NCBI GenBank assembly: GCA_963772585.1
Contig: CAVYXV010000013.1
Location: 62,555 to 126,554 of the forward strand
DNA length: 64,000 nucleotides
Origin: an uncultured Planctomycetota bacterium
GTDB taxonomy: Bacteria; Planctomycetota; PLA2; JAEUHO01
Direction: 5' to 3'
The notes beneath the pieces are model-generated. The model ran no database searches. It had not been told where the DNA came from and saw nothing but the letters and a program-made list of their open reading frames with translations. Positions 3,380-33,451 of this stretch are shown piece after piece; positions within the stretch are counted from its first letter, which is position 1; each line of letters opens with the position of its first letter. Made by a program: the position numbers and the translations under genes.

Positions 3380-3544
3380 GCGCGTGCCTCCGGCGGAGGA
3401 GGATACCCGAGAGGGCGCGCGGACCGGTCGGCGCGCCGCCCGGCGTGATCTTCCTGGCCGGCACGACCCCCGAACGGGCCTTGCATCGCGCGGCCCGGGT
3501 CCGCATCTCGCGCAGGATGCGTCCAAGCGCGGAAACGGCGGACA

Positions 3545-4299: not shown

Positions 4300-5223
4300 A
4301 TGCGGCGGGCAGGGGCCTTGTGGCTTCTCGCCGCCGCGATGGGACTTCCCTCCGCGAGGGCGGACGAGCCGAAGCCCCCCGACCTCCCGCGACTCGGCAC
4401 GATCGGCCGGCGACCCGATCCCTCGGTGGTGATCCCGGTCGCGATCGACCGCGACGGACGGATCACCGTGGACGGCGGACGGTCCCTCGGGCTCGCCGAG
4501 CTCCGCGACGAGCTTCGCCGTCGAACCGACAAGTCCGAGTGGCGAAACGACGATGGCACGAGCAACCGCGTCCTGCTGGTGGACGCCGACGCCGCCGTCC
4601 CGTGGCGGCTCGGGCAGTGGGTGGTCCAGGTCGCCGCCGACCCGCGGATCCAGATCTCCCGGATCTTCTTCGGCGCGCGCCCCCTGGAGGGCGAAGGACG
4701 CGGCGCGATCGGCTGGACGCTTCCCGTGGATCGCGGACTCAGCCGCTCCGGGACCTTCCCGGATCCGATCCGACACGTCGCCATCAAGGCCTTCGCCGCC
4801 GCGGACGCCGATCGCTCCGATCCGCAGGGCGTGGCGGCGTCGGTCCGGCGCGCGCTGGCGGATGGGAAGGACGGCGAGCCGGCGATCTTCGAGGTGAAGG
4901 CACCGCCGCCCCTCGGCGCGGGCGTCCCGACGGGGACGGTGATGGCCATCCTCGACGTGCTCCACCGCGCCGGTGCACGGGACGTCCGGTTCGAGGGCGC
5001 GGCGCCGCCGCAGGACGCGAGCGCGAACGCGATCCGGGCGTGGGTGAAGGAAACGCGGGCCACGAAGGCCATCCCCTATCTCGTGATGGACGGAAAGGTC
5101 GTCCCCCCCGCCGTGGAGGACGCCGCGCTGGCCAAGCCCGGGGGCTTGCGGGACGCGCTCGTGGGGTTCGGCAGGCTGGCCGGCAATCCCCCCCACGTTG
5201 CGGTGGAGGCACCGGACAAGTAG
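4300..5223 (+). CDS. secreted hypothetical protein with two ExbD/TolR-like domains
   Basis: Signal peptide MRRAGALWLLAAAMGLPSARA. Two repeated ExbD-like segments (RITVDGG...NRVLLVDADAAVPW...VVQ and PAIFEVKAP...VMAILDVLHRAGARDVRF). The upstream 285 codons of the ORF are junk. Confidence 0.5.
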   Translation: MRRAGALWLLAAAMGLPSARADEPKPPDLPRLGTIGRRPDPSVVIPVAIDRDGRITVDGGRSLGLAELRDELRRRTDKSEWRNDDGTSNRVLLVDADAAVPWRLGQWVVQVAADPRIQISRIFFGARPLEGEGRGAIGWTLPVDRGLSRSGTFPDPIRHVAIKAFAAADADRSDPQGVAASVRRALADGKDGEPAIFEVKAPPPLGAGVPTGTVMAILDVLHRAGARDVRFEGAAPPQDASANAIRAWVKETRATKAIPYLVMDGKVVPPAVEDAALAKPGGLRDALVGFGRLAGNPPHVAVEAPDK

Positions 5224-5277
5224 GCGGTACGGCGATACGGAGCCACGGGGCGGTACGGAGCCGGGCTCCGGTACGCC
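5224..5277. repeat. REP-like palindromic units (GGTACGGAGCC-G-GGCTCC) upstream of the hydrolase gene
   Basis: ggcggtacggcgatacggagccacggggcggtacggagccgggctccggtacg contains the same GGTACGGAGCC half-sites as the array downstream of the gene (see 6098-6338). Confidence 0.6.
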
Positions 5278-5317
5278 AAGGAGTTTCGTTCACAGCCAGG
5301 CTTCGTACGGTACGGGG

Positions 5318-6085
5318 ATGGACGCGTACGAGACCCGGCGGATCGAGTTTCCCAACGACGAGGGCGAGTTGCTCGCGGCGCGCCTGGAGGTGCCGACCGA
5401 TGCGGCGCGGGCGTATGCGGTCTTCGCCCATTGCTTCACGTGCTCGAAGGACGTCTTCGCGGCGTCGCGGGTGAGCCGTGGGCTGACGGCCCACGGGATC
5501 GCCGTCCTGCGCTTCGACTTCACGGGGATCGGCGGCAGCGAAGGCGACTTCGCGAATACCAACTTCTCGTCGAACGTGGAGGACCTCGTCTCCGCCGCGC
5601 GCTGGTTGGAGGAGGAACATCGACCCCCCTCGCTGTTGATCGGACACAGCCTCGGCGGAGCGGCGGTGCTGGTCGCCGCCGCGTCGCTCCCGTCGGTCCG
5701 CGCCGTCGCGACGATCGCCGCGCCGTCGGACCCGCGGCACGTGGCGGAACTGCTCGGCCCGGTCGCCGAGCGGATCGAGGAGAAGGGCCTTGCCGCCGTC
5801 TCGCTGGGCGGCCGGACCTTCCGGATCCGCAAGCAGTTCCTGGACGACCTGCAGGACCAGCGCCTGGAGCGGGACCTCGCCCACGGACCGTCGCGCGCCC
5901 TCGTGATCTTCCACTCGCCCGCGGACGAGGTCGTGCCGATCGAGCACGCCCGGCGGCTGTTCGACGCGGCGCGACACCCGAAGAGTTTCGTGTCCCTCGA
6001 CGACGCGGACCACCTGCTCAGCCGCGAGGAGGACTCCCGCTACGTCGCGGAGGTCCTCGCCGCGTGGAGCCGCCGGTACCTCTGA
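5318..6085 (+). CDS. alpha/beta hydrolase (dienelactone-hydrolase/esterase fold)
   Basis: ATG at 5318. Nucleophile elbow GHSLGG, conserved Asp, and HSPADEVVP...H near the C-terminus. Confidence 0.8.
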   Translation: MDAYETRRIEFPNDEGELLAARLEVPTDAARAYAVFAHCFTCSKDVFAASRVSRGLTAHGIAVLRFDFTGIGGSEGDFANTNFSSNVEDLVSAARWLEEEHRPPSLLIGHSLGGAAVLVAAASLPSVRAVATIAAPSDPRHVAELLGPVAERIEEKGLAAVSLGGRTFRIRKQFLDDLQDQRLERDLAHGPSRALVIFHSPADEVVPIEHARRLFDAARHPKSFVSLDDADHLLSREEDSRYVAEVLAAWSRRYL

Positions 6086-6097
6086 CGTTCGGTACGG

Positions 6098-6338
6098 CGG
6101 TACGGAGCCTGGCTCCCGATCAAACCCTTCGACGGTACGGAGCCTGGCTCCCGATCCGACCTTTCGACGGTACGGAGCCTGGCTCCCGATCAGACCTTTT
6201 GCACCCCGACGGGCTCCCCCGAGCGCGTCGAGGGCCCTACTTCCGGGCGCTCCCGGCGAACCGTGTGCATCGGAGCCAGGCTCCGTAGCGAGGCTCCGTA
6301 GCGCGAAAAGGTGTGCCTGGGAGCCAGGCTCCGTACGG
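6098..6338. repeat. array of REP/BIME-like palindromic repeats: 3 direct 35-bp-period units then 2 inverted units
   Basis: CGGTACGGAGCCTGGCTCCCGATC at 6098, 6133 and 6168; the core GGAGCC-T-GGCTCC is a perfect palindrome. Inverted copies GGAGCCAGGCTCCGTA at 6272 and 6319. The array sits between convergent genes (hydrolase stop 6085, HEAT gene stop 6340). Confidence 0.8.
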
Positions 6339-6339
6339 A

Positions 6340-8199
6340 CTACGGCGCGCTTCGGCCTACGAAGGAGCGGCGACAGGACTCGAGGATCGGCGCCGCGACG
6401 GGGGAGGCGGCGGCGATCGCCTCGTCGAGGGCCTTCGCCGTGCCGGACCACCGCGGTCCGAGGGTCGCGAGCGCGACGTACAGCATCCCCTCCCCTCGTC
6501 CCTTCGAAGCGATGGACGCGGCGTAGCGCCCGAGGAGCGCGGGCACGCTCGTGGCGGCGCTGGACGGGCGGCGGGTCAGCGCGCTCGCGGCGAGCCAACG
6601 CGTCGCGTCGTCGTCGAGCGCGGCGACGAGGATCGGCACCAGCCGACTCTCCGGCTCCCCGATCTTGCAGAGCGCATTCAACGCCACCTGCCGCGTGGAC
6701 GCCTCCTCGTCGTGGAGGTGCCGCTCGATCAGCAAGAGGAGCCGGGACGAGTCGGCGGGAGCGTCCGTGGCCGTGAAGAAGCGCAAGGCCGAACGGACGT
6801 CCCCGTCGCCGTCGGGATTCTCGAGCCCCGCCAGGGCCAGGGCCGTCGCCTCCTCCGGGAGGAGCTTGGCGTCCAGGAGCGCCCACGCGACCCGCAGCTT
6901 GTCGCCCGCGTCCCCCTCCTTCGCCCTCGCGAGCAGGAACGCGACCCCGTCGGTTCCGGGGAAGCGGGCGAGGGCGTGCGCGGCGCTGCGGCCGACGACG
7001 GAGCTCTCGTAGTGCCCCTCCAACCACGTGAGCGCCTCCGGGGTGTCCGCCGGCGGGTCCATCCGTGCCACCTGGTCCACCGCCTTGCTCCGGAGGCGAT
7101 CCGAGTCGGACTCGGCGATCCGGAGGAGTACGTCCACCTGCGGACGGACGTCGGCGCCCGCGTCGAGCAACGCCTGGAAGGCGTAGAGGCGCTCGTCGTC
7201 GGTCTCGCCGTCGCGCGCGATGGCGACGAGCGCGGCGCGGCCGGCCTCGCCGAGCGCGGCCAGGGCCTGGCCGGCCCCGACCCCGTGCTCCTCCTGCAGG
7301 AGCCGGGCGAGGGCTCCCACCACGTACGGGGTCGCGACGCCCGACGCCCCCAGCGCCGCCGCCGCCGCGCGGCGGACGTGCGGGTCGTAGTCGTCGAGCA
7401 GAGGGACGACGTCGGGGACCAGGGGGGCACCCGCGGGCCCCAGCGTCGCGAGCGCGTCGAGCAGTCCCGGCCGCGCATCGGTGTCCTCGAGGATCGCGAC
7501 GCGGAGGCTCCTCAGCACGTCGGGAGTACCGCCGGCGATCGCGGCGAGCGCCCTGGCCGCCTGGGCGGGAAGACCCCGCAGCGGAGGCTGGAGTCGCTCC
7601 AGGAGGAAGGGGACGGCGTCGGCGGCCGCGGGACCGATCTGCTGCAGGCTGAAGAAGGCGACCGTACTGCTCCAACCGTAGGCACGGGTCATCGGGACGC
7701 GCTGGAGATACGCGACCAGCGACGCGGTGGCCGGGGCGGCGTCCGGCCCCATCGTCCGGAGCGCTTGCAGCACCATGCCGTCGCGGAGGTCGCTCTCCGT
7801 CCCCAACATGGCCGCCAGCACGCGCGCGCCGTCCGGCCCGAACGCGGCCAGCGCGAGCGTGAGTCGCTGGAGACCGATGCGGCGCCGGGCGAGCTCGGCG
7901 TCCGACAGCTTCGCGAGGGCGGCGAGGCGATCGAAGAGCGTGGGGTCCCGGGAGGCCCGCTCGCGAATCGTGGCCGCGCGGACGCCGTCGCTGCCGCGCC
8001 AATCGATGCCCTCCAGGAACGCCGCCACGTCGACTTCGCGCGGGGCGCCGACGAGCACGGGGGCTTGCCCGGGAACCGTCGGAGCCGCTTCGTCTTGCCC
8101 GGCGTAGGGCTCGGGCGAAGGGAAGAGGGACCGTCCCACCCCCACGAGCAGGCCCGCGGCGAGCAGCACGACCAGGAGGGGAAGGGCCCTTTGCGCCAC
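6340..8199 (-). CDS. HEAT/PBS-lyase repeat protein with N-terminal signal peptide
   Basis: Repeated DxxVRxAAAxALG-type HEAT units throughout. N-terminal hydrophobic leader. Lies 67 bp downstream of the kinase gene on the same strand. Confidence 0.7.
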   Translation of the reverse strand: MAQRALPLLVVLLAAGLLVGVGRSLFPSPEPYAGQDEAAPTVPGQAPVLVGAPREVDVAAFLEGIDWRGSDGVRAATIRERASRDPTLFDRLAALAKLSDAELARRRIGLQRLTLALAAFGPDGARVLAAMLGTESDLRDGMVLQALRTMGPDAAPATASLVAYLQRVPMTRAYGWSSTVAFFSLQQIGPAAADAVPFLLERLQPPLRGLPAQAARALAAIAGGTPDVLRSLRVAILEDTDARPGLLDALATLGPAGAPLVPDVVPLLDDYDPHVRRAAAAALGASGVATPYVVGALARLLQEEHGVGAGQALAALGEAGRAALVAIARDGETDDERLYAFQALLDAGADVRPQVDVLLRIAESDSDRLRSKAVDQVARMDPPADTPEALTWLEGHYESSVVGRSAAHALARFPGTDGVAFLLARAKEGDAGDKLRVAWALLDAKLLPEEATALALAGLENPDGDGDVRSALRFFTATDAPADSSRLLLLIERHLHDEEASTRQVALNALCKIGEPESRLVPILVAALDDDATRWLAASALTRRPSSAATSVPALLGRYAASIASKGRGEGMLYVALATLGPRWSGTAKALDEAIAAASPVAAPILESCRRSFVGRSAP

Positions 8200-8265: not shown

Positions 8266-11200
8266 CTACGACCCGGTGCCCTCCCGTCGCCGCCACGCCG
8301 CGAGGACGGCGCGGTGGATCGGGACGTTCTCCACGACCGAGTCGCGGTACGCGGCCGGAACGCGGGCGGCGAGAGCCCTCAGCTCCTGGTGGGCCGCTTC
8401 CAGGTATCCGATGTCGTGGGTCGCGCGCCACGCCTGGAAATCGGCCTCGATCTCGCTGATCGCGGTGACGGGGCCGTCGCGCGCGGCCACGAGCGCGCGG
8501 ATCGTCTCCGGCGTCGCGTGCGAGAGACCCGCCTCCCGGAGCCGGAGGATCCTCGCGGCGGGGTCGTCGGGCTCCGCGAGCGCCAGTGCCTCGTCGAACA
8601 GCGAACGGGCCCCCGCGGTGTCGCCCGCCTCCTCGGCGACCTCGGCCCGCACGGCGAGGGCGGGAGAGAAGAGTCCCAGGCGCCTGGCCTCCGGGTGCTC
8701 CGTCACCTCCTGCGCCAGGTGGTCGGCGCGGTCGAGGTTCCCGCGCACGAGATGGATCTTCGCGAGACGCAGCAGGACGTAGGCGGTGAGCCGCGGATCG
8801 CCGACCTCGAGCGCGATCCGCCGGCAGGCCTCCAACGCGTCCTGCGCGCCGTCCAGGTCGCCGAGCAGGCGGCGGACGTGCCCGAGATTCAGGAGCACGT
8901 TCGCCTCGCCCTGCCGGTTTCCGATCTCGCGCGACATGCCGAGCGCGCGTTCGTACGTCTCGAGCGCCTCCGCGTAGCCTCCCTGCGAGAGCAGCGAACC
9001 GCCGAGGTTCCCCAGCAGCATGGCCTCCTGGTAGCGGTCGCCGATGCTGCGGGCGAGGATGAGCGCCCGCTCGTAGCAGTCCCGCGCGGACAGGTACTCC
9101 CGCCGGTACGTGTGGACGTTGGCGATGTTTCCGAGTGCGGTCACCTCGGAGGCGGGGTCGCCGATCTCGCGGGCGATCTCGCGGTGGCGTCGGTGATTCG
9201 TGAGCGCCTCGTCGAGCCGGCCGCGGGTACGGAGGACGTTTCCGAGACTCCCCAACGCCGCGGCCTCGCCCGCGCGGTCGGCCCCACGGCGGGCCACGGC
9301 GAGCGCCTCCTCGAGGAGGCGCTCGCTCTCGTCGAGGCGTCCCAGGTAGTAGAGCGCGACGCCGAGGTGGAGGGCCGCGGCGCGGAGGGGGGAATCGCCG
9401 CCGGCTTCGCGCGCGAGGGAGAGCGCCTGGCGGAGCGTCTCCTCCGCCCCGGCGTAGTCGGACACCCGGATCCGGAACCAGCCGAGGTCCGTCAGGACCT
9501 CGGCCTGGAGCGACGGGTCGCCCGCCTTCCGGGCCAGGGCGAGCGCCCTTCGGAGCGCCGATTCCTGGGCGGCTCGCCGGCCGAGATGGCCGCAGCCGGC
9601 CGCCTCGCGCAGCAGGAGGCGGGTCCTCCGCTCCCCGCGCACGAGCCCGGGGACGGCGAGCGCCCGCTCGATCCGGTCCACCACCGCCTCGGTCCGGTAG
9701 GAGTAGCCCAGGTGGTCCAGGGCCCGATCGAGGAACGGCAAGGCGTCCTCCGGTCGCGCGCCCCGGAGATGGTGCGTGACCAGGAACACGCAGGTCCTCG
9801 GGTCGACCTCCTCGACGGGCTTCTCCCCCACCCCCTCCCGTTCGGCCAGGGCGGAGGCAAGAGCCGTGTGGTAGGCGACGCGAAGCGCCTGGGGAAGGGC
9901 GTCGTAGAGGACCTCCTGCACCTGGTGGTGGTCGAACCGGAGCAGCCGGCCCGCGCCGCGAACGAGGCCGCTTCGCCGCTCCACCTCCGCCAGCGCCTGG
10001 AGGACCAGGATCGGCTTCGACTCCAGGACGCGGGCGACGAGGTCGGGGTCGAACTCGAAGCCCTGCACCGCGGCGACGTCCAGGATCGCGCGGTCCGGGC
10101 GCTCGAGGTCCCTGGTGCGGGCCTGCACGAGATCGCGCACGGCGGACGGAACCTCGATCTCCCCGATCTCCTGCGTCTCCAGGTACGTCCCGTCGTCGGA
10201 GCGGGAGAGGTACCCCCCCTCCTCGAGGCCGCGGACCATCTCGAAGACGAAGAAGGGGACGCCGTCCGACTTGAAGGCGATCCGACCGCCCAACCGATCC
10301 GCGAGCGTGGCGCTCGCGAAGGCCTCGCGGAGGACCTCGATCACCTCGCGAGGGGACAGGCGGTCCAGGGCGAGGCGGCGGCAGTGCGGTAGCGCCGTGA
10401 GACGCGCGAGCTCGTCGTCGGCACGCCCCGGGCGCGTCGTCACGAGGAGGAGCACGGGCGCGGCGGCGATGGCCCTTGCCAGCGAGACGAAGAGGGCACG
10501 GCTCTCGGGCGGAGCGAAGTGGAGGTCCTCGACCACCCAGAGGACGGGCTTCTCGCGCGCGAGGGCGCGGACCAGTTGCACCATCAGGGTGTGCGGCGCG
10601 TCGCCCTCCAGTCGCCGCGCGCCGGGTGGGAGGTCGCCGTGGCGGACGAGGGCCGCGAAACCGGGGACGAGCTCCGGCATCGCATCGAGATAGGGTCGCA
10701 GCGCCTGGTCGAGCGTCGCGTCCCCGAACCGTTCGACGATCGCGTCGGAGAACGCGCCCAGGCCGGACGTCGGAAGATAGGCGCCGTAGAGGACGTGCGC
10801 ATCGACGTCGCCGACGCGCTCGATCGCCGCATCCACGAAGCGGGTCTTCCCGATGCCCGCCTCGCCCTCGAGCACGACGACGCGGCCATGACCACGCGTC
10901 GCCTCCTTCCACCACCCGGCGAAGGCGGCGAGCTCCGCGTCCCGGCCGCGGACCGCCGTGTCCCGCCGCACGGGAATCTCCGGCCGAACGACCTGGGAGG
11001 CGAGCAGCGCCTTCTCCCGCCCGACCCACCACCGGGAGCGCTCTCCCTCGGCGAGGACCCTCGCCAGCATCGAGGCGGTCGAGAAGCGGTCCTGGGGACG
11101 CTTGGCGAGGAGCGTCGCGATCACCTCGGAGAGGAACACGGACACCGCCGGGCGGCAGTGGTGCACGGGCGACGGCGTCTCCCGGAGATGCGCGTGGATC

Positions 11201-12021
11201 GTCGTCGCGATGTCCGTCCTGCGAAACGGATTGCCGCCGGTGGCCATCTCGTAGAGGACCACGCCCAGGGCGTACAGGTCGGCGGAGGGCCCCGCGTCTT
11301 CGTGGCGGAACTGCTCGGGCGCAGCGTAGTGGACCGAGCCGGCGAAGTGCCCCGGCGCCGTCAGACCAGAGGTTCCGTCCACCAGCCGGGCCACGCCGAG
11401 GTCCATGATGCAGACGCGCTGCGAGTCGGTGACGAGCACGTTCTCGGGCTTCAGATCGCGGTGGACGATGCCCTGGGCGTGGATCGCCGTGAGGCCCGAG
11501 GCGATCTGACGCGCGAGCTCGCGGAGGAGCAGCTCGGGGACGCACCCCAGATCGAGGAGCATCCGTCGGAGCGTGCGGCCCTCGACGAACTCCATCGCGA
11601 TGTAGAGGACGCTCCTCCCGTCGAGACGGGACTCGCCGGCGTCGAGCGTCCGGACCACGTGTTCGTCGCAAACCTTCCGGCCGATGTCCGCCTCGCGGAG
11701 GAACCGGCGCACGAAGGCGGGCTGGTCCACGAGGTGCGGGTGGATGACCTTGAGGGCGACGACGCGGCCCGGCGGCATGCCGCCGGCGGGTTCCACCACG
11801 GCGGCGCGGTAGACGGTCCCCATCCCGCCCGATCCGATCTCGGCCTCGATGCGATAGGGACCCAACCGGTCCAACGCCCGCCTCCGCGCCTCGCGCAGGG
11901 ATCGCGCGCACGGATCATGCCGGATCGCGCCCCGGATCGCGACCCGGATCGCGACGTCCGGGCTGCGGCGTGGGTCGGAGTGGGAGGTGCCCGCGGCCGA
12001 GGAGCCGCGGGCACCGGACAT
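8266..12021 (-). CDS. STAND-type Ser/Thr protein kinase (kinase - P-loop NTPase - TPR repeats)
   Basis: Kinase subdomains (GSGGMGTVY, VALKVI, HRDLKPENVL, DLGVAR, APE). Walker A (LEGEAGIGKTRF). Long C-terminal TPR array. Start is uncertain: the first ATG is at 12021, and the ORF reaches 12144 from a GTG. Confidence 0.85.
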   Translation of the reverse strand: MSGARGSSAAGTSHSDPRRSPDVAIRVAIRGAIRHDPCARSLREARRRALDRLGPYRIEAEIGSGGMGTVYRAAVVEPAGGMPPGRVVALKVIHPHLVDQPAFVRRFLREADIGRKVCDEHVVRTLDAGESRLDGRSVLYIAMEFVEGRTLRRMLLDLGCVPELLLRELARQIASGLTAIHAQGIVHRDLKPENVLVTDSQRVCIMDLGVARLVDGTSGLTAPGHFAGSVHYAAPEQFRHEDAGPSADLYALGVVLYEMATGGNPFRRTDIATTIHAHLRETPSPVHHCRPAVSVFLSEVIATLLAKRPQDRFSTASMLARVLAEGERSRWWVGREKALLASQVVRPEIPVRRDTAVRGRDAELAAFAGWWKEATRGHGRVVVLEGEAGIGKTRFVDAAIERVGDVDAHVLYGAYLPTSGLGAFSDAIVERFGDATLDQALRPYLDAMPELVPGFAALVRHGDLPPGARRLEGDAPHTLMVQLVRALAREKPVLWVVEDLHFAPPESRALFVSLARAIAAAPVLLLVTTRPGRADDELARLTALPHCRRLALDRLSPREVIEVLREAFASATLADRLGGRIAFKSDGVPFFVFEMVRGLEEGGYLSRSDDGTYLETQEIGEIEVPSAVRDLVQARTRDLERPDRAILDVAAVQGFEFDPDLVARVLESKPILVLQALAEVERRSGLVRGAGRLLRFDHHQVQEVLYDALPQALRVAYHTALASALAEREGVGEKPVEEVDPRTCVFLVTHHLRGARPEDALPFLDRALDHLGYSYRTEAVVDRIERALAVPGLVRGERRTRLLLREAAGCGHLGRRAAQESALRRALALARKAGDPSLQAEVLTDLGWFRIRVSDYAGAEETLRQALSLAREAGGDSPLRAAALHLGVALYYLGRLDESERLLEEALAVARRGADRAGEAAALGSLGNVLRTRGRLDEALTNHRRHREIAREIGDPASEVTALGNIANVHTYRREYLSARDCYERALILARSIGDRYQEAMLLGNLGGSLLSQGGYAEALETYERALGMSREIGNRQGEANVLLNLGHVRRLLGDLDGAQDALEACRRIALEVGDPRLTAYVLLRLAKIHLVRGNLDRADHLAQEVTEHPEARRLGLFSPALAVRAEVAEEAGDTAGARSLFDEALALAEPDDPAARILRLREAGLSHATPETIRALVAARDGPVTAISEIEADFQAWRATHDIGYLEAAHQELRALAARVPAAYRDSVVENVPIHRAVLAAWRRREGTGS
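11920..11955. repeat. 12-bp x3 tandem repeat (CCGGATCGCGMC) in the kinase 5' region
   Basis: ccggatcgcgcc / ccggatcgcgac / ccggatcgcgac; in the kinase ORF frame it reads AIRVAIRGAIR. Confidence 0.7.
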
Positions 12022-12311
12022 TCCAAGCCACACCGGGATCGGGACGGGCCGTATCCTCGCCGGCCGTATCCCAGGGCACCGTTCGCTTGCGGCCGAAGGC
12101 GCCCTCCCTTCCCCCGAACGGAAGGCGAGGCCGAAACCGGACACCCGCCGCCCCGGTCACTAGGCAGAAAGTCCCGATTGCTCCCGCCGTTCCCCGCGCA
12201 TGCGGCCCGGCTTGCGGGGGTTCCCGACCCCGGATCGGGCGCCGTCGCGAGTGGTATGCTCGCCACCCGATGTTCGCCATGGACTTCGGGATGCACGACC
12301 GGGGGGGTCGA

Positions 12312-12646
12312 CTGAGAGAACGTGAAGAAATCGAAGTCCGGGGCTTCGGCCGGCTGCGGGACCACGATGCTGCGTTGCTCGTCGTCAGCGACCCACGGTG
12401 GGGTCGCCTCCTCCTCGCGCCTTGCCTCGTGGCCCCTCGCTCGGCCTCGGGCCCTCGGCCCATTTCTTCACGCCCTCTGAGAGAACGTGAAGAAATCGAA
12501 GTCCGGGGCTTCGGCCGGCTGCGGGACCACGATGCTGCGTTGCTCGTCGTCAGCGACCCACGGTGGGGTCGCCTCCTCCTCGCGCCTTGCCTCGTGGCCC
12601 CTCGCTCGGCCTCGGGCCCTCGGCCCCTTCCTTCACAGCCTCTGAG
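12312..12646. repeat. 165-bp tandem duplication (2.03 near-identical copies) in a divergent intergenic region
   Basis: Copy 1 at 12312-12476, copy 2 at 12477-12641, and the first 5 nt of a third. The two copies differ only in the last ~15 nt. Open in several frames (ORF 11970..12719 reads the same 55-aa peptide twice). A related copy lies at 31464-31590. Confidence 0.9.
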
Positions 12647-12761
12647 ATGGCCGCACTCATCCGGGGCGGTGCGCGACCGGGGCAGGACCTCGCCACCGGG
12701 CGTCGCGCTACCGCCGTGAAGCACGCTCCACGCCTCGCAACCGCGAAGGGACAGCCGCACC

Positions 12762-13940
12762 ATGATGACGCCGCTCCACATGCAGGACCTCGAAGCACTT
12801 CTCGCGCACCGCGAAGGTCCCTGCGTCTCCATCTACATGCCGACGCATCGCACGGGTCACGAGATGCAGCAGGACACGATCCGTCTCAAGAACCTCCTCA
12901 AGGCCTCGGAACGCGAGCTCCAGGGCGTGGCAATTCGGGAGACGTCGGCGCAGGAGATCCTGAAGCCGGCCCGTGACCTGTTGAACGAGGGACCGTTCTG
13001 GGAGAACCTCGGGGACGGGCTCGCCGTGTTCCTCGCACCGGGGTTCTCGCGCATCTACCGCCTTCCCGCGCCCTTCAGCGAGCTCCACGTCGTCGCCGGC
13101 GCATTCCACGTGAAGCGGCTCCTCCCGATCGTGGGCGGCGACGGGCGCTTCTACGTCCTGGCGCTCAGCCAGAACGAAGTGCGCCTGCTACGGGGCACGC
13201 GATTCCACGTGGAGGAACTGGAGCCCGACGGCATGCCCAAGAGCCTGCGGGAAGCGCTCTGGATGGACCACCCCGAGAAGAGCCTCCAGTTCCACACGGG
13301 CTCCTCCGCCGCCACGACGGGCGACGGAGGCTCCCGGCGAGCGGCCGTCTTCCACGGGCAGGGCGGGCCCGCCGCCATCGAGAAGTCGAAGCTGGAGCGG
13401 TACTTCCGCCGCGTCGACGACGGCCTGAGGGAGCACCTGGCCAACGGCAAGGACCCCCTCGTCCTCGCCGGCGTGGATCACTACTTCCCGATCTACCGGG
13501 AGATCAGCAAGGTCCCGACCCTGGAGAAGGAGGGCGTCCCCGGCAACCCGGAGAAACTCAGCATGAGGGAGCTCCACGACCGCGCCTGGGCCATCGTCGA
13601 ACCCCAGTTCCGGAAGGCCGAGACCGACGCGATCGACCGCTACCGGGCGCACGCCGGCCAGGGCAAGACGGCGGCGGGCCTCGAAGCCGTCCTCCCGGCC
13701 GCGCACCATGGTCGGGTGGACACGCTGCTGGTCGCCGCCGGTCGCCAGCAGTGGGGCGCGTGGGTCGCCGGGAGTGGCGCCGACGGGAGCGTCGTCATCC
13801 ACGATCACTACGAGCAGGGCGACCGCGACCTGCTCGACGTCGCGGCGGCCGCCACCTTGAAGTCGGGCGGTCGGGTCTTCCCCCTGGCGGTGGAACGGAT
13901 TCCCGACGGCGCGGATGCGCTGGCCATCCTCCGCTACTGA
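12762..13940 (+). CDS. eRF1/Pelota-like (bacterial aeRF1-type, baeRF family) protein
   Basis: ATG-ATG start with AAGGGA 10 nt upstream. Central segment AVFHGQGGPAAIEKSKLERYFRRV resembles the eRF1 GGQ loop (HGRGGQSALRFARLR). C-terminal GRVDTLLVAAG matches the eRF1/Dom34 domain-3 signature VETLLV. Confidence 0.65.
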   Translation: MMTPLHMQDLEALLAHREGPCVSIYMPTHRTGHEMQQDTIRLKNLLKASERELQGVAIRETSAQEILKPARDLLNEGPFWENLGDGLAVFLAPGFSRIYRLPAPFSELHVVAGAFHVKRLLPIVGGDGRFYVLALSQNEVRLLRGTRFHVEELEPDGMPKSLREALWMDHPEKSLQFHTGSSAATTGDGGSRRAAVFHGQGGPAAIEKSKLERYFRRVDDGLREHLANGKDPLVLAGVDHYFPIYREISKVPTLEKEGVPGNPEKLSMRELHDRAWAIVEPQFRKAETDAIDRYRAHAGQGKTAAGLEAVLPAAHHGRVDTLLVAAGRQQWGAWVAGSGADGSVVIHDHYEQGDRDLLDVAAAATLKSGGRVFPLAVERIPDGADALAILRY

Positions 13941-15727: not shown

Positions 15728-15801
15728 CGGCGACCAGGGCGCTGGGGATGGGCGCACGGCGGGTGACGTGCTCGGAAGGTGGATACGCTGGCCATCGAGC
15801 G

Positions 15802-15842
15802 CCCCCCCCCGCGCGCGCGACAGAGAGAGAGAGAGAGAGAGG
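15802..15842. repeat. simple-sequence repeats C9 - (GC)4 - (AG)10 immediately 5' of the reductase start codon
   Basis: gccccccccc gcgcgcgcg acagagagagagagagagagagg ends 8 nt before ATG 15850; the (AG)n run doubles as the purine-rich RBS. Confidence 0.9.
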
Positions 15843-15849
15843 AGCCGGC

Positions 15850-16740
15850 ATGGAGAAGCGATGGTTCGGTCGGACCGACATGGAAGTGAGCGTCCTCGGG
15901 TTCGGGGGCGCCGAGATCGGCCTCGAACGGGCATCGGTCGCGACGGCGACCCGCCTGCTCCGCCAGGCGCTCGACGACGGGCTCGACGTCATCGACACGG
16001 CGGAGTGCTACGAGGACAGCGAGACGCTGATCGGCCGCGCGGTCGCCGACCGGCGGAGGGACTTCCACCTCTTCACGAAGTGCGGCCATCCGGAGGGCTT
16101 TGGGACGGAGGACTGGCGCCCGGCATCGATCCTCGCCAGTATCGAGCGGAGCCTGAAACGCCTGCGCACCGACCACGTCGATCTCGTCCAACTCCACAGT
16201 TGCGGGGCGGAGGAGTTGCAGAAGGGCGACGCGATCACCGCGCTTCTCCGCGCGAAGGAGAAGGGTCACACGCGCTACATCGGGTACAGCGGCGACGGCG
16301 AGGCGGCCCGGGTAGCGATCGGGAGCGGCGCCTTCGACGCCCTCCAGACCTCGGTCAGCATCGTGGACCAGGAGGCGATCGAGCGCACGTTGCCGCTCGC
16401 GCGGGAGCGGGGGCTGGGGGTCGTCGCGAAGCGACCCATCGGCAACGCGGTATGGCGCTACGACGGGCCGCCCGACAACGCGTACCACCAGCCGTACTGG
16501 GAGCGATGGCAAGCGCTGGCGTACCCGTTCGCGAAGGAGGGAGACCCCGCCCGCACGGCGCTTCGCTTCACGCTGGGCGTGCCGGGCGTTGCCACGATGA
16601 TCGTCGGGACGAACCGGCCCGGTCGCTGGCGAGAGAACGCCCGGGTCCTCGAGGAGGGGCCCCTGTCCGAGGAGGTCTTCGAGCGCATCCGCGAGCGCTG
16701 GCGGGAGGTCGCCGGCCCCGCGTGGGGCGGCCAGACGTAG
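15850..16740 (+). CDS. aldo/keto reductase
   Basis: GFGGAEIG, DTAECYEDSE, HLFTKCG, LQLHSCG motifs of the AKR superfamily. Confidence 0.85.
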   Translation: MEKRWFGRTDMEVSVLGFGGAEIGLERASVATATRLLRQALDDGLDVIDTAECYEDSETLIGRAVADRRRDFHLFTKCGHPEGFGTEDWRPASILASIERSLKRLRTDHVDLVQLHSCGAEELQKGDAITALLRAKEKGHTRYIGYSGDGEAARVAIGSGAFDALQTSVSIVDQEAIERTLPLARERGLGVVAKRPIGNAVWRYDGPPDNAYHQPYWERWQALAYPFAKEGDPARTALRFTLGVPGVATMIVGTNRPGRWRENARVLEEGPLSEEVFERIRERWREVAGPAWGGQT

Positions 16741-17919: not shown

Positions 17920-19746
17920 ATGCGTCGATCCCTCCTCCTCCTGTTCGCGTTCGCCCTGCTGTTTCTCGGCCGCAGCGCGGAAGCCGCTCCTCGCGACGAG
18001 CCGCAGGCGAAGGTCCCGCCGGTCGAACGGAACCTCGTGTACGCGACGGCCGGCGACCGGGCGCTGCACCTCGATCTCTACCGCCCGGCGCCGTCCGCTT
18101 CGCCCGCGCCCGTCGTGCTCTGGCTCCACGGCGGCGCTTGGCGCATGGGCAGCAAGCTCTTCTGCCCCATCTTCTGGCTGCGGGACGAGGGCTTCGCCGT
18201 GGCCAGCGTGGACTACCGCCTGAGCGGCGAAGCGACGTGGCCCGCCCAGATCCACGACGTGAAGGCGGCGGTGCGTTGGCTCCGCGCGAACGCGGCGACG
18301 TACGGCTTCGACGCCGGCGCGATCGGCGTGGCCGGCGCGTCGGCGGGGGGCCATCTCGCGGCGCTGCTCGGGACGTCGGGCGGCGTCGAGGCGCTGGAAG
18401 GGGATCTCGGCGACCACGCCGACGTCTCGAGCCGCGTCGCCGCGGTCTACGACATGTTCGGTCCGACCGACCTCGTCCACATCTACGAGGACGCGCGAGT
18501 GGACGGGAAGCTCCCGAAGGAGATGGACGCGGTGGCCGCCTTCCTCGGCGGAGAGAGAGCGGAGAGGAAAGAGAGGGCCCGACTCGCGAGCCCGCTCACC
18601 TGGGTCAGCCCCGACGACCCGCCCTTCCTGATCGTCCACGGAGAAGAGGACTTCCTCGTCCCGGTCGCCCAGAGCGTCCGGCTGGAGAAGGCGCTGAGGG
18701 ACGTCGGCGTCCCCGCGACGCTGGTGGTCATCCCGGGCGCCAGCCACGGCGGGTTGGCGTTCCTCACGAAGACCGAGCGCCATCGCATGCTCGACTTCTT
18801 CCGCCTGCACCTCTTCCACGAAGAGACCGCGGCCGTCCCGAAGGAAGCCGCGCGGATACGCGAGGCGGTCCGGCCCGGCCCCTTCGAGATCGCGCGGTTC
18901 GAAACCCCGCTCCTCGACCCGCTCCGGAAGAAGTCGCTCCCGATCGCCGTCACGTGGCCCGTCCGCAAGGGGCCGTGTCCGGTGATCGTCTTCTCCCACG
19001 GGGCGTTCGGGTCGCGGGAGGGCTATCGCCCGCTCGTCGATCACTGGGCGAGCCACGGGTGGGTCGTCGTGCAGCCCACGCACGAGGACTCCCTCTCGCT
19101 ACGCAAGGGCGCCGGGGCGCGCGCGAACCCCTTCCGGCACTGGCGCTCGCGCATCGGCGACGTGCGGCTCGTGCTCGACGACCTGGAGGCCATCGGCGCG
19201 ATGCTCCCCGGTTTCGAGGGGACCCTCGATACCGGGCACGTCGCCGTGGCCGGCCACTCGTTCGGCGCGCACACGGCCCAACTCCTGGCCGGCGCCACGA
19301 CGCGCGAGGAGGGAGCGACGGAGCGCGGCGTCCATCGGGATGGGCGGCCGAAGGCCTTCCTGCTGATCTCCCCGCAGGGGAGCGGCGACCTCCTCGACGC
19401 GGACTCCTGGACGACGATGACGCCGCCCGTGATGGTGATCACGGGGACGGAGGACAGGGGGCGCGGCGGGCAGCCCTTCAACTGGCGGACCGAGCCGTGG
19501 TCGCGGGCCGCGCCCGGCGAGAAGTTCCTCGCCGTCCTCCAGGGCGCCGACCACGGCTTCGGAGGGATCGCCGGCGCGCACGCCCTCGCGCGGCGCCGCG
19601 ACCCGGCGATGGTCGATCGCGTCCGCGCCCTCTCGCTCCTCTTCCTCGAGGCCGAGGTCCGTGGCGACGAGGCCGCCCGCGCGGCCTTGGCCCAGGCGCC
19701 GCTCCGCGCGGTCCTCGGCCCGGAGGTCCGCCTCTCCGTCCGGTAG
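17920..19746 (+). CDS. secreted tandem alpha/beta-hydrolase (esterase/lipase-type domain + PAF-acetylhydrolase/dienelactone-hydrolase-like domain)
   Basis: Signal peptide. Domain 1: HGGAW...GASAGGHLA...HGEED. Domain 2: VIVFSHGAFGS...VAGHSFGAHTA...GADHGF. Confidence 0.8.
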   Translation: MRRSLLLLFAFALLFLGRSAEAAPRDEPQAKVPPVERNLVYATAGDRALHLDLYRPAPSASPAPVVLWLHGGAWRMGSKLFCPIFWLRDEGFAVASVDYRLSGEATWPAQIHDVKAAVRWLRANAATYGFDAGAIGVAGASAGGHLAALLGTSGGVEALEGDLGDHADVSSRVAAVYDMFGPTDLVHIYEDARVDGKLPKEMDAVAAFLGGERAERKERARLASPLTWVSPDDPPFLIVHGEEDFLVPVAQSVRLEKALRDVGVPATLVVIPGASHGGLAFLTKTERHRMLDFFRLHLFHEETAAVPKEAARIREAVRPGPFEIARFETPLLDPLRKKSLPIAVTWPVRKGPCPVIVFSHGAFGSREGYRPLVDHWASHGWVVVQPTHEDSLSLRKGAGARANPFRHWRSRIGDVRLVLDDLEAIGAMLPGFEGTLDTGHVAVAGHSFGAHTAQLLAGATTREEGATERGVHRDGRPKAFLLISPQGSGDLLDADSWTTMTPPVMVITGTEDRGRGGQPFNWRTEPWSRAAPGEKFLAVLQGADHGFGGIAGAHALARRRDPAMVDRVRALSLLFLEAEVRGDEAARAALAQAPLRAVLGPEVRLSVR

Positions 19747-19809: not shown

Positions 19810-20313
19810 ATGCGCACGCTCCCCCTGCTCGTCGTCCCTCTGCTCCTGCTGGCCGCCTGCGGCCAGGACACGCCCCCGCCCGCGGTCCGCGAAATGAAGC
19901 CCCCGACGACGGTCTACCGGACGCCGCCGCCGCAGCCCGACGCGGGCAAGGAGCCCTCGTGGGTCACCGTGGACCACATCCTGATCGCCGCCAAGGGCGA
20001 TCGGATCCCGAACCCTCGCCACGCGGACCCCGAGGAGGCGAAGGCCCTCGCCTACCGCCTCCTCGACGAGTTGGAGAAGGGCGCGGACTGGGACGCGTTG
20101 AAGCGGAAGTACTCCGAGGACCCGCCCCCCGGCGGCCCCTACGCCCTGGCGAACCACGGCGTCTCGCCCCGCAAGGGGGAATTCGAGAGGCGCAGCATGG
20201 CCAAGTGCTTCGGCGACGTCGCCTTCTCGCTGGAGATCGGCGAGATCGGCATCGCGGACTACGACCCGAAGACCTGTCCCTTCGGATGGCACATCATCAA
20301 GCGCATCCGCTGA
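19810..20313 (+). CDS. PpiC/parvulin-type peptidyl-prolyl isomerase lipoprotein
   Basis: Lipobox LLLAACG. Parvulin motifs (VDHILIAAKG...GWHIIKRI). Confidence 0.8.
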   Translation: MRTLPLLVVPLLLLAACGQDTPPPAVREMKPPTTVYRTPPPQPDAGKEPSWVTVDHILIAAKGDRIPNPRHADPEEAKALAYRLLDELEKGADWDALKRKYSEDPPPGGPYALANHGVSPRKGEFERRSMAKCFGDVAFSLEIGEIGIADYDPKTCPFGWHIIKRIR

Positions 20314-20428
20314 AGTGGGCGGAAAGGAAGGGTCCGAGGGCGCGAGGGGCCGCGAGCGGCGCAGCCGCCAAGGGCTTCTCGAAGGGCAACGCCGCATCGC
20401 GGTTCGCGGCCAAGGCGCGGCGTGGGCT

Positions 20429-21274
20429 ATGCTCCGTCGCGTGCTCGCCGCGATCCTCGTCGCCGTCCTCCTGTTGGGGATCGGACTCTTCCTCTTCCGA
20501 CGGCCGTTGACCGACGCGATGCTCTTCTACCCGGACCACGGTCAGGGCCGATCGCCCGACGACGTGGGACTCGCGTACGAGTCGCTGTGGGTAGAGGCCT
20601 CCGACGGTGTCCGCACGGAGGCGTGGTGGATCCCGGCGGGACCCGATGCGCCGGTGATCCTGTTCTTCCACGGCAACGCAGGAACCATCTCGGATCGGCT
20701 GGAAAACGCGGCCGAGCTCCACGGACGGGGCGCGAGCGTGCTGCTCGCCGAGTACCGGGGCTACGGAAACAGCGGGGGCAAGCCCTCCGAGCAGGGGTTC
20801 TACCGAGACGCCCGTGCGGCGCTGGCGGTGGCGCGGGAGCGCGCGGGCGATGCACCTGTCGTGGTCTTCGGCCGGTCGCTCGGCGGTGCCGTCGCGATCG
20901 ACGTGGCCTCCCGGGAACGCGTAGACGGGCTGGTCGTCGAATCGTCGTTCACGTCGCTCGGAGAGATGGCGAAGCGGGCGGTGTCGGTGCCGTTCGCGAG
21001 CGTACTGGCCGCGTACGACTTCGATTCCGTGGCGAAGATCGGGAGGGTGACCGTTCCCGTCCTCGTGATCCACGGCGAGGACGACGAGCTGGTTCCCATG
21101 GAAATGGGCCGCCGGCTCTACGAAGCGGCGCGGGGAGCGCCGTGGCGACGCATCCACGCCGTCGAGGGCGGCGACCACGACTCGACGCTCGCCGTCGGCG
21201 GGGAGGCGTACTGGGAAGCGTGGAAGGCGTTCCTGGCGACGGTGGAGCACCGGGCGGAAGAACCCCGGCGCTGA
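20429..21274 (+). CDS. membrane-anchored alpha/beta hydrolase (S9/S33-like, BEM46-type)
   Basis: ATG at 20429 precedes the TM helix (LAAILVAVLLLGIGLFLF). FFHGNAG, GRSLGG, HGEDDELVP motifs. The ORF extension from 20315 is Arg/Gly-rich junk. Confidence 0.75.
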   Translation: MLRRVLAAILVAVLLLGIGLFLFRRPLTDAMLFYPDHGQGRSPDDVGLAYESLWVEASDGVRTEAWWIPAGPDAPVILFFHGNAGTISDRLENAAELHGRGASVLLAEYRGYGNSGGKPSEQGFYRDARAALAVARERAGDAPVVVFGRSLGGAVAIDVASRERVDGLVVESSFTSLGEMAKRAVSVPFASVLAAYDFDSVAKIGRVTVPVLVIHGEDDELVPMEMGRRLYEAARGAPWRRIHAVEGGDHDSTLAVGGEAYWEAWKAFLATVEHRAEEPRR

Positions 21275-27446: not shown

Positions 27447-27480
27447 TCACGAGCGGACGTTGAATCGCGGGGACCTGGCA
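27447..27480 (+). promoter_or_regulatory. copy (a) of a recurrent GG-N10-GC motif (sigma-54 -24/-12-like)
   Basis: cacgagcGGacgttgaatcGCggggacc; shares the ACGAACGGACGTTGMATCGCG core with copies at 29262, 35562 and 52881. Confidence 0.35.
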
Positions 27481-27565
27481 CGCATCTCGCGCCTTGCCTC
27501 GCGGCCCGGTCGGATGCGGCGCCTCCGACAGCCCGGCGCTTCGGACGTCCCACCCCCGGCCGTGA

Positions 27566-29261: not shown

Positions 29262-29310
29262 GGCCACGAACGGACGTCCCGTCGCGCGCTTCGCGGGGAG
29301 TGCAGGCACG
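29262..29310 (+). promoter_or_regulatory. copy (b) of the recurrent GG-N10-GC motif plus an inverted partner, upstream of the sigma-54 activator gene
   Basis: ccacgaacGGacgtcccgtcGCgcgcttcgcggggagtgcaggc, then acggccgttcgtg as the inverted half. Confidence 0.35.
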
Positions 29311-29449
29311 ACGCCAACGGCCGTTCGTGCATAGTGCGGGCTGGATGCGGGATTCCCCCACGCCAACCTCTGGACGGCGGCTTGCGTACGACACCACGGG
29401 GCCACCCGCGCCCGTGCGCGCCGGTGTACTCTCGCGCTCCTGGGATTGG

Positions 29450-30889
<1,440 letters not shown>

Positions 30890-31013
30890 CCAGGCCACCC
30901 GCACGCGTTCGACGCTTGCGCGCGACGACCTCCCGAGCGCGTGCGACCCGGGTGGGATGCGACCGCCCGGTGCCCGCGTCCCACCACGGAGCCCTGCGCG
31001 GCGGGGGACAATG

Positions 31014-31032
31014 GGCCCGCTCATCGCAGTCG
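31014..31032 (+). promoter_or_regulatory. candidate sigma-54 promoter for the EncFtn-encapsulin operon
   Basis: tGGGCCCgctcaTCGCA matches the -24 GG / -12 GC elements with exact 10-nt spacing. The -12 GC lies 31 nt upstream of ATG 31061. A sigma-54 activator gene is immediately upstream. Confidence 0.4.
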
Positions 31033-31060
31033 AGGGAGCGCGTCCCAAGGAGGTCCCGAC

Positions 31061-31447
31061 ATGTCGGAAAGCAGCGGCGGTCTTCACGAGGCGAAGAGCG
31101 ATCTCGGCCCGGAGACCGTGGACCGGCACCGGGCGATCGCGTCCCTGATGGAAGAACTCCAGGCGATCGACTGGTACGAGCAACGCGTCCAGGCGACGCA
31201 GGACGAAACGCTCGGCGCGATCCTCGCGCACAACCGGGACGAGGAGAAGGAGCACGCCGCCATGCTGCTGGAGTGGCTTCGGCGCCATGATCCCGCCCTG
31301 GACGGCGAGTTGAGGACCTACCTCTTCCGCGACGGAGACATCACGACCTTGGAAGGGGCGGGAGCCGAGGGGGCCGACGACACGGGCAGTACGCCGCCCC
31401 GAACGACCCCGGACGGTTCGCTGGGCATCGGGGACATGGGAGGATGA
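31061..31447 (+). CDS. encapsulated ferritin-like cargo protein (EncFtn) with a C-terminal encapsulin targeting peptide
   Basis: AAGGAGG RBS. EncFtn ferroxidase motif (IDWYEQRV...ILAHNRDEEKEHAAMLLEWLRR). C-terminal ...DGSLGIGDMGG resembles the SLGIGxL cargo-loading peptide. Confidence 0.85.
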   Translation: MSESSGGLHEAKSDLGPETVDRHRAIASLMEELQAIDWYEQRVQATQDETLGAILAHNRDEEKEHAAMLLEWLRRHDPALDGELRTYLFRDGDITTLEGAGAEGADDTGSTPPRTTPDGSLGIGDMGG

Positions 31448-31463
31448 GAAGGAACCGGATGCA

Positions 31464-31590
31464 GTGTTTCGGCCGGCTGCGGAGCCACGACGCGCCTTGC
31501 CCCTTCGACGGGCTCACGGCGGCTGCGCCGCTCGCGGCTCCTCGCGAGGCCTCGGACCCTCGCCCCATTCCCTCAGACCCTCCGAGAGGA
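31464..31590. repeat. third member of the 165-bp repeat family, between encFtn and the encapsulin shell gene
   Basis: Shares ttcggccggctgcgg.(g/a)ccacga at its 5' end and cctcgg.ccctcg.ccc.tt.c.tca...ccctc.gagag.a at its 3' end with the tandem units at 12312-12646. Its 3' end supplies the shell-gene RBS (gagagga). Confidence 0.6.
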
Positions 31591-31597
31591 GACGACG

Positions 31598-32404
31598 ATG
31601 TTGTTCCTGCGGCGTGAACAGGCCCCGGTCTCGGAGGCCGCGTGGGCCCGGATCGACGCGGAGGCGAGACGCACGTTGCGCCTCCGCATGGGCGCTCGCA
31701 AGTTCTTCGACGTCCTCGGTCCGAAGGGGTGGGCCGACGCGTGCGTGAATCTCGGACGCAAGGCCGAGACCACGGGATTCGACCCCGGCGTGGACGCCGC
31801 AACGCGGCTCGTCCAGCCGCTGCTGGAGCTCCGTGTCCCGTTCACGCTGTCGCGCGCGGACCTGGATGACGTGGACCGGGGTTGCCCGAACCCCGATCTC
31901 GATCCCGTGATCGACGCGGCGAAGAGCCTCGCTCGCGCCGAAGGCCGGGTGCTCTTCCACGGCCACGCGGACTCGGGCGTGGTCGGCATGGCGGACGGCG
32001 GCACGCACGATCCGCTGCCGCTCCCCGAAGATCCGGAAGGCATTCCGGGCGCGGCGGCCGCCGCGGTCAACCTGCTCCGGGACGAGGGCATCGAAGGGCC
32101 CTACGGCATCGCGCTCGGGTCCCGGCCCTACACCGGCCTCGTGCAGGCGCCCGCCTCCGGCGGCTATCCCGCTCTCGATCGGCTTCGCAACGTCCTCAGC
32201 GGCCCGGTCGTCTGGGCGCCGTCGCTCGAGGGCGCGGTGGTGCTGAGCATGCGCGGCGGCGACTTCGAGTTGCACGTCGGCCAGGACGCCTCGATCGGCT
32301 TCCACTCGCACACGCCGGAAGACGTCCACTTCTTCCTGGTGGAGACCTTCACGATGCTGAATCTCACGCCCGAAGCGGCGATCGGCCTCCAGTACGGAGG
32401 ATAG
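31598..32404 (+). CDS. family-1 encapsulin nanocompartment shell protein (linocin M18 / CFP29 type)
   Basis: MLFLRREQAPVSEAAW...GRKFFDV, ELRVPFTL, RGCPNPDL, DEGIEGPYGIALG, GGDFELHVGQDASIGF, VHFFLVETFT. These are collinear with the T. maritima and M. xanthus encapsulin sequences. Confidence 0.9.
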   Translation: MLFLRREQAPVSEAAWARIDAEARRTLRLRMGARKFFDVLGPKGWADACVNLGRKAETTGFDPGVDAATRLVQPLLELRVPFTLSRADLDDVDRGCPNPDLDPVIDAAKSLARAEGRVLFHGHADSGVVGMADGGTHDPLPLPEDPEGIPGAAAAAVNLLRDEGIEGPYGIALGSRPYTGLVQAPASGGYPALDRLRNVLSGPVVWAPSLEGAVVLSMRGGDFELHVGQDASIGFHSHTPEDVHFFLVETFTMLNLTPEAAIGLQYGG

Positions 32405-33418: not shown

Positions 33419-33451
33419 CGTTGCGTTCCACGGAAGGGGACAGGGGTGCCG

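Follow-up and report, generated by a model that had tools for sequence, protein, structure and literature searches.

What does a sequence of 165 bp, repeated head-to-tail in a divergent promoter region, stand for? For the pair of units found at 12312-12646, the original prediction allowed for a cis-regulatory RNA, for a miniature repeat element, and for a short leader-peptide module. All coordinates are those of the window, the whole 64-kb stretch of DNA that was analysed (G+C content 70.8%). The evidence points to the second option. We read the two units as adjacent copies, A and B, of a new noncoding MITE family that probably owes its mobility to an IS5/IS1031-like transposase acting in trans (at a probability of about 0.7).

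The tandem units and their relatives

The units are located between the gene of a Ser/Thr protein kinase with AAA and TPR domains (8266-12144, minus strand; Pfam) and that of a bacterial eRF1-like (baeRF) protein (12762-13940, plus strand; PF18845 and related families). The start codon of the kinase gene is uncertain (12144 or 12021), and A/B occur 170-290 nt upstream of this divergent gene; the ATG of the eRF1-like gene follows 117 nt past the end of copy B. No sigma-70-like promoter tied to the element was found and none could be assigned at A/B. Other repeats occur around the kinase start: a 12-bp repeat (CCGGATCGCGAC, 3-5 copies at 11892-12046), which gives VAIR repeats in the frame of the kinase ORF, and a 43-nt inverted repeat (11955-11997 / 12004-12046), in or just upstream of the uncertain start.

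With Tandem Repeats Finder, the segment 12312-12647 has a period of 165, 2.0 copies, 97% matches, no indels, and a score of 644; in a repeat search of the window, 12312-12476 and 12477-12641 are 98% identical. In a direct comparison, units A and B differ by four mismatches only, at unit positions 151, 154, 161, and 162 (12462, 12465, 12472, and 12473 in A; 12627, 12630, 12637, and 12638 in B). All four are in the right TIR, and the first 150 nt are 100% identical. The predicted head-to-tail duplication of two units is, thus, borne out. The period of 165 is also correct, but the element itself has 162 bp, to which a TGA of 3 bp is added; with the middle TGA common to both copies, the period becomes 165 bp. 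On the plus strand, the left flanking TGA (12313-12315, the first copy of a direct repeat attributed to target-site duplication; gggtcgac-TGA-GAGAACGTGAAGAAAT) is followed by copy A (12316-12477, 162 bp), with GAGAACGTGAAGAAAT as left TIR (12316-12331) and ATTTCTTCACGCCCTC as right TIR (12462-12477), which match at 14/16 positions. The middle TGA (12478-12480) joins the right TIR of A to the left TIR of B. Copy B (12481-12642, 162 bp, plus strand), identical to A except for the 4 nt in the right TIR, is followed by the third copy of the direct repeat (12643-12645, plus strand; CACAGCCTC-TGA-gatggccg). The right TIR of B, CTTCCTTCACAGCCTC, matches its own left TIR at 11/16 positions and resembles the right ends of copies from two other organisms (L013 and L014, see below).

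A third family member had been placed next to the encapsulin gene, and copy C (143 bp, plus strand, diverged, with 73% identity to A) is real according to both nhmmer (E = 3.6e-8 to 3e-12 versus A) and the covariance model (117 bits). The limits proposed for it, 31464-31590, are to be replaced by 31440-31582. Its TIRs, GAGGATGAGAAGGAAC and ATTCCCTCAGACCCTC, match at 11/16 positions, and the triplets flanking it are TGG (31437-31439) and CGA (31583-31585). Four independent assemblies (L001-L004) give copy C without a single difference.

A fourth member, copy D, is a degenerate remnant on the minus strand (around 20311-20411) that has lost its left TIR but with recognisable central and right parts (nhmmer E = 9e-6 versus copy C; 17.5 bits on the plus strand with the minus-strand covariance model). 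It corresponds to the inverted repeat I1, of which 65 nt are 78% complementary to 31482-31546. The spacer from a PPIase gene (19810-20313), whose stop codon (20311-20313) copy D abuts, to an alpha/beta-hydrolase gene (20429-21274) is filled by this copy; it measures 115 nt, as it does in three other assemblies. The original prediction had its three copies all lying 5' of a plus-strand gene. This does not extend to every copy in a single orientation, since the genes on either side of copy D are both on the plus strand and the copy itself is inverted. Over the window, the covariance model gives no further convincing copies. Copy B is not separately listed by the model, presumably owing to overlap with the match to A. 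The weak matches at 2782-2910, 18673-18824, and 53342-53435 are inside genes and were taken as noise.

Repeats of other kinds are present in the window. Between the convergent genes 5198-6085 (plus strand) and 6340-8199 (minus strand), a cluster at 6095-6345 contains three direct 35-bp units (CGGTACGGAGCCTGGCTCCCGATCAGACCTTTCGA) and inverted copies, each with the palindrome GGAGCCTGGCTCC; by its appearance, this is another repeat family, of a REP/BIME-like kind. A motif of about 43 nt (for example, CTAGCCGGCACGACCCACGAACGGACGTTGCATCGCGCGG), with 74-91% identity between copies, occurs at 3454-3513, 27450-27492, 29264-29307, 35548-35605, and 52868-52927. Several of these sites are just upstream of genes, including that of a sigma-54 activator (29300-30889), and the motif may be a shared operator or promoter motif; its spacing does not fit the canonical -24/-12 site of sigma-54. 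Finally, a tandem repeat of 249 bp (59750-60622, 3.5 copies, 97% matches) falls within a membrane-fusion gene of the CusB/HlyD type (58025-60691), where it codes for a series of YHS metal-binding domains.

Further copies of the unit had been anticipated and, besides copy D, they occur in L013, L014, and P0005. A degenerate pattern that matches all four window copies returned, in a scan of metagenomes, only L013, a contig of another organism with a version of 229 bp positioned 3' of a convergent gene. L014, again a metagenome contig of another organism, has a 160-bp version; it was reached through a protein search with the FGRLR frame, which led to P0001, a spurious ORF of 85 aa over the element (820-1076 of L014). 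The copies in L013 and L014 have 82-89% identity to A. P0005, obtained by an exhaustive profile search, is likewise a spurious ORF (263 aa, on a 705-kb contig) and contains two tandem units of 55 aa (165 nt) of the same subfamily, identical at the protein level; the ORF spans both units with a frame change within each. The flank of P0005 does not match the window and the locus is nonorthologous. In the GTDB representative genomes, the pattern TTCGGCCGGCTGCGGNNCCACGA gave seven single chance matches, of which none was confirmed by nhmmer; that pattern is too strict, L013 and L014 having CCGCGA. Scans of viral contigs and blastn searches against plasmids and phages gave nothing real.

Termini, target site and class of element

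All copies called with both ends are bounded by 16-bp TIRs starting with GAG (consensus GAGGCCGTGAAGGAAT). The two TIRs match at 16/16 positions in L014 (GAGGCCGTGAAGGAAT) and L013 (GAGGCTGTGAGGGAAT), at 14/16 in A, and at 11/16 in B and C. In the window, the TIR motif occurs seven times versus 0.66 expected, and four of the seven occurrences are element ends. The element is about 160 bp long (162 in A and B, 160 in L014), with variants of 143-229 bp, and its G+C content is 68%-73%. Several organisms have copies, which are found in either orientation and in intergenic regions unrelated to one another.

Around A and B, the 3-nt flanks read TGA/TGA/TGA; L014 has TGA/TGA, L013 GCA/TCA, and copy C TGG/CGA. 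The repeat is perfect at two loci only, and the DNA of five to six independent copies was at hand. As fits a target-site duplication, the two flanks are in direct, not inverted, order and vary between loci (TGA versus TCA). The TGA beside GAG/CTC could in part also belong to a longer, near-palindromic end (CTGAG/CTCAG). The gene upstream of the L014 copy has its stop codon in the left TGA, and the convergent gene at the L013 copy has its own, in reverse complement, in the right TCA.

The element is small (in the range of 50-500 bp) and noncoding, with TIRs, flanking direct repeats (in a small sample), and copies at several loci. The hallmarks of MITEs have been described, as has the way in which their direct repeats decay over time (PMC10969869). 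The TIRs, the direct repeats, the unrelated loci, the stem-loop, and the decayed flanks of old copies together lead to the reading as a prokaryotic MITE, and with the 3-bp direct repeat and the presence in both orientations, the option of a miniature repeat element is the one retained. Such MITEs (Correia/NEMIS, ERIC/IRU, RUP, QMITE, or MITEAba12) are, like the element here, small, noncoding, multicopy, and intergenic, with TIRs, short direct flanks, and a long stable stem-loop; clustered or adjacent insertions and the loss of direct repeats in old copies are shared as well (PMC10969869). There are also differences. Prokaryotic MITEs are typically AT-rich, whereas the present element is GC-rich (68%-73%), and the target-site duplication is TA in Correia, ERIC, and RUP but TNA here. 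The element has no sequence similarity to the phage and plasmid collections or to Rfam and was seen only in uncultured high-GC bacteria.

In the IS1031 group of the IS5 family, TNA is preferred and the direct repeat is exclusively of 3 bp (PMC12016507; PMC2516522). A published example, ISLrh, has TGA and an IR starting with GAACCTGT (PMC12016507; also PMC2516522). As in ISLrh and its group, the target-site duplication here is of 3 bp, at TNA. The TIRs of the group have 16-17 bp and start with GA, with GAACCTGT in ISLrh compared with GAGGCTGT/GAGGCCGT here. We take GAG to be the end of IS1031-group elements, partly from the tables of ISfinder. The context C-TNA-G is also the target in the PHIS superfamily, related to IS5 and with eukaryotic NuwaII relatives (PMC4482050), and the PHIS/Harbinger relatives share that context with the present element (PMC4482050). 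It is the 3-bp TNA duplication, together with ends starting with GA(G), that leads to the IS5/IS1031-like assignment, drawn solely from the anatomy of the ends and the target. Elements of the IS1031 group are about 850-950 bp long and contain a transposase, whereas the present one has 160 bp, with no transposase in or near any copy. Among 40 ORFs of the 64-kb window compared with Pfam, no transposase of any family was found. No autonomous element with these ends was found either, and the mobilisation in trans by an IS5/IS1031-like transposase, as well as any act of transposition, is inferred.

Insertion would occur at a TNA triplet, mostly TGA in the context C-TGA-G, and would duplicate the triplet; the cognate transposase would be encoded elsewhere in the genome. 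In many cases the duplicated triplet is a neighbour's stop codon, so that insertion there leaves the gene intact.

Origin of the dimer, folding and coding potential

The dimer has the layout TGA-element-TGA-element-TGA, with a period of 162 + 3. Insertion would recreate C-TGA-G at both ends of the element, and a second insertion beside the first would yield such a dimer; slippage between two CTGAG repeats would yield it too. A local duplication of a unit that is still a MITE, through replication slippage or unequal exchange at the CTGAG microhomologies, is a possible origin of the dimer, at a fairly low probability. Its expected product is exactly TGA-E-TGA-E-TGA with a period of 165 bp, and it would account for the complete identity of the first 150 nt of A and B and for the protein-level identity of the two units of P0005. 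However, the four differences between A and B all fall within the 16-nt right TIR, for which the chance is (16/165)^4, or about 1e-4, under random drift, and the right end of B resembles those of the L013 and L014 subfamilies. Because the differences are clustered and the end of B is like those of L013 and L014, a duplication followed by drift is unlikely. A clean double insertion, for its part, needs a chimeric master copy or a later gene conversion. Neither a clean second insertion nor clean slippage explains the clustered differences without an extra event. The second dimer, at the unrelated locus of P0005, speaks for a systematic process and suggests that dimers form regularly.

The element, read here as a MITE, is an imperfect palindrome over its full length and forms one long hairpin. 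The minus-strand RNA of copy A folds with -96.3 kcal/mol (z = -5.8), versus -77 kcal/mol (z = -2.4) for the plus strand; copy C alone folds no better than shuffles. When five copies are aligned, their G-rich strand, which in A, B, and C is the minus strand, has 54 pairs, and 96.2% of the cells are paired; in 11 of the pairs both partners have changed. In controls with the partner slid by 1-3 columns, there are 0-1 double-changed pairs, and shuffles never reach the observed values. On the C-rich strand, 91.9% of the cells are paired, and most of the mismatches are A-C, equivalent to G-U on the other strand; wobbles are retained in 14 cells on the G-rich strand versus one on the C-rich strand. 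Compensatory changes are present in the TIRs (AAGAAAT/ATTTCTT, AAGGAAT/ATTCCTT, and AGGGAAT/ATTCCCT) and in the central stem (GCGACCC/GGGTCGC into GCGATGC/GCATCGC), and helix 4 also covaries. The alignment is suggestive of a pairing kept by compensatory changes between organisms; with a small sample of partly related copies, the covariation is suggestive only. Compensation in internal stems is not required by a plain MITE and leaves room for a constraint at the level of RNA or single-stranded DNA.

The element might even be primarily a structured RNA, either an sRNA/antisense family or a mobile hairpin module, produced from the G-rich strand and selected for its fold. The compensatory changes outside the TIRs (in the central stem and helix 4) favour such an RNA, as do the asymmetry between strands, both in pairing (96.2% versus 91.9%) and in the G-U cells, and the deeper fold of the minus strand of copy A. 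Nevertheless, we consider it improbable. Copy C alone is not significantly folded, TIRs and flanking direct repeats are foreign to RNA genes, there is neither a match in Rfam nor a sigma-70-like promoter, and the orientation to genes is mixed. The covariation comes from four to five partly related sequences, and the same pattern would result from hairpin-templated repair of the palindrome or from single-stranded DNA hairpins, in which G-T is tolerated. No match to Rfam was obtained in the window at the gathering thresholds, and over 12250-12700 there is only noise (E >= 0.17, far below gathering). A dedicated 5' cis-regulatory RNA, the first of the initial options, is unlikely, as the copies differ in how they are oriented and placed with respect to genes, with copy D inverted and the L013 copy 3' of a convergent gene.

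Other functional modules were considered and rejected. For a sigma-54 or sigma-70 promoter module, a CRISPR, a retron, or an omega-RNA-like RNA, there are no associated genes and no Rfam match. For an intrinsic terminator, weak terminator-like scores occur at A-type ends only.

A long imperfect palindrome, restricted to intergenic DNA, with subterminal GC hairpins and a tandem arrangement like that of BIME/REPIN clusters, recalls elements of the REP/REPIN type moved by RAYT or palindrome-associated elements of the IS200/IS605 type. REP, BIME, and REPIN are similarly extragenic palindromes that form hairpins in mRNA, with tandem clusters and compensatory changes. But a REP measures 20-40 nt, has neither TIRs nor a TSD, and depends for its movement on a Y1 transposase (RAYT); none of these features was found here. 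Neither REP/REPIN nor IS200/IS605-type elements make a TSD or true TIRs, while the present element has 16-bp TIRs and 3-bp flanks. No Y1_Tnp/RAYT gene occurs among the window ORFs scanned. The best-studied REPs carry a conserved 5' tetranucleotide of the GTAG type, and none is present in the element. An origin of this kind is very improbable.

There is also only a slight chance that the tandem copy number is an artefact of assembly, with one copy in the genome. Such repeats do break short-read assemblies. The contig L005 breaks at the near-identical A/B and ends inside B; L004 ends inside copy C; three of the four contigs begin just before or inside copy C, and all three span the degenerate D. 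Against the artefact, the right ends of A and B differ and both are embedded in unique junctions, and an independent assembly of another organism also has a dimer. The independent L005, which starts inside B at 12599, supports the body together with the B-specific right end and confirms its junction with the flank. From its start to the first B-specific base there are 28 nt, which is what a graph branch between two versions of the right end would give; Logan contigs use k = 31. In the same contigs, L002 differs from the window by a few SNPs, and the end of L005 has diverged at 15794-15850 (window coordinates), near an (AG)10 microsatellite (15822-15841); these differences indicate strain variation in the sampled populations.

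Least of all do the data favour a translated module, whether a leader peptide, the third of the initial options, or a MIRU-like intercistronic mini-ORF coupling the translation of its neighbours. It is true that the period of 165 corresponds to 55 codons, that one frame (FGRLR...APR.AS.PRPI) is open in all copies, and that the EncFtn stop and an ATG of copy C overlap as ATGA. However, all six frames are open or nearly stop-free, and an open frame is, therefore, uninformative here. GC3 in the element is 0.57-0.79, versus 0.82-0.96 in nearly all the long window ORFs taken as real (the exceptions being a few doubtful long ORFs at 0.65-0.81), and no frame has the GC3 of coding sequence. Between copies, substitutions are evenly spread over codon positions (7/6/5, 9/10/11, and 13/16/12), and an indel of 2 nt puts A and L014 in different frames. 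Counted from the GTG of the TIR, the frame likewise differs between these two copies. The lengths of element plus TSD include 146, 163, and 232, which are not multiples of 3, and the neighbours of copy D run antisense to it. When 1.84 billion proteins were searched exhaustively, only spurious ORFs over other copies came up. MIRUs are also variable-number tandem intercistronic units of a high-GC genome, and the unit here is a multiple of 3. Yet MIRUs contain mini-ORFs overlapping the stop and start codons of the neighbours and have no TIRs and no hairpin, whereas the present element has no coding signal but clear TIRs and a TSD.

The EncFtn-encapsulin operon and the meaning of the family

Copy C, read as an old member of the MITE family, separates two genes of an encapsulin operon. 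The EncFtn gene (encapsulated ferritin; 31061-31447, plus strand; Pfam PF22277 and PDB alignment) gives a product with the C-terminal targeting peptide DGSLGIGDMGG. Its stop codon, TGA (31445-31447), falls within the left TIR of copy C, and in our reconstruction the last EncFtn codons and the stop derive from the flank and the left TIR. The right end of copy C, ...CCCTC (31582), is followed by CGA and then by the flank GAGGAGACGACGATG. The encapsulin shell gene (Linocin_M18) follows at 31598-32404 on the plus strand. The terminal GAGAGRA of the unit had been proposed as its ribosome binding site, which is mostly wrong: the Shine-Dalgarno AGGAG (31587-31591) sits in the flank, outside copy C and 5 nt past its right TIR. 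In A and B, GAGAGAA is made of TGA and the left end of the next unit. The wider region 29300-35514 contains the sigma-54-dependent activator, the EncFtn cargo with its C-terminal SLGIG targeting peptide, and the shell gene, along with a CBS-domain protein on the opposite strand and, further downstream, LigD-type genes (phosphoesterase, ligase).

If copy C and one triplet, assumed to be TGA, are excised in silico, EncFtn regains a C-terminus, DGSLGIGDMRGDD.../...DGSLGIGDMRGDDDVVPAA, which aligns with DGSLGIGSLKGEA of the solved full-length EncFtn of the Rhodospirillum type, and its ORF then extends over the start of the encapsulin gene. Related genomes yielded no empty site. The restored C-terminus is supportive, but not decisive, for an insertion of copy C. 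The element would have landed within the last EncFtn codons, replacing about 10 of them past the core of the targeting peptide, and would now provide the stop codon. Copy C would also place a spacer of 150 nt, able to form a hairpin, between the EncFtn and encapsulin cistrons; in the mRNA of the operon this would amount to a hairpin-forming addition of 143 nt ending 5 nt before AGGAG. Any effect of the hairpin on neighbouring genes, as an mRNA hairpin or a roadblock, would probably be incidental.

A more speculative reading, to which we attach a low probability, is that of a palindromic element that seeks stop codons and whose full-length hairpin is selected on the G-rich strand, as RNA or single-stranded DNA. 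It would act as a portable hairpin of 3'-UTRs and intercistronic spacers or as an antisense RNA and would reset the ratio of cargo to shell, with dimers made regularly by the transposase. If so, the C-TGA-G target would regenerate the stop of the host gene, the element would also have trimmed the tail of the EncFtn targeting peptide, and head-to-tail dimers with ends 3 bp apart would be a regular product of the transposase.

With the MITE reading, the odd-looking duplication of a promoter region has a simple explanation: a 162-bp element with a 3-bp target duplication, twice. The family would be a previously undescribed GC-rich one, in uncultured high-GC bacteria, that tends to sit exactly on TGA stops and breaks short-read assemblies. 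For annotators, it is a warning that such stretches, and ORFs called over them (like P0001 and P0005), are probably mobile-element DNA. The remodelled 3' end of EncFtn and the spacer preceding encapsulin could matter for expressing or modelling the operon; apart from this effect on the encapsulin operon, the element is an ordinary selfish one.
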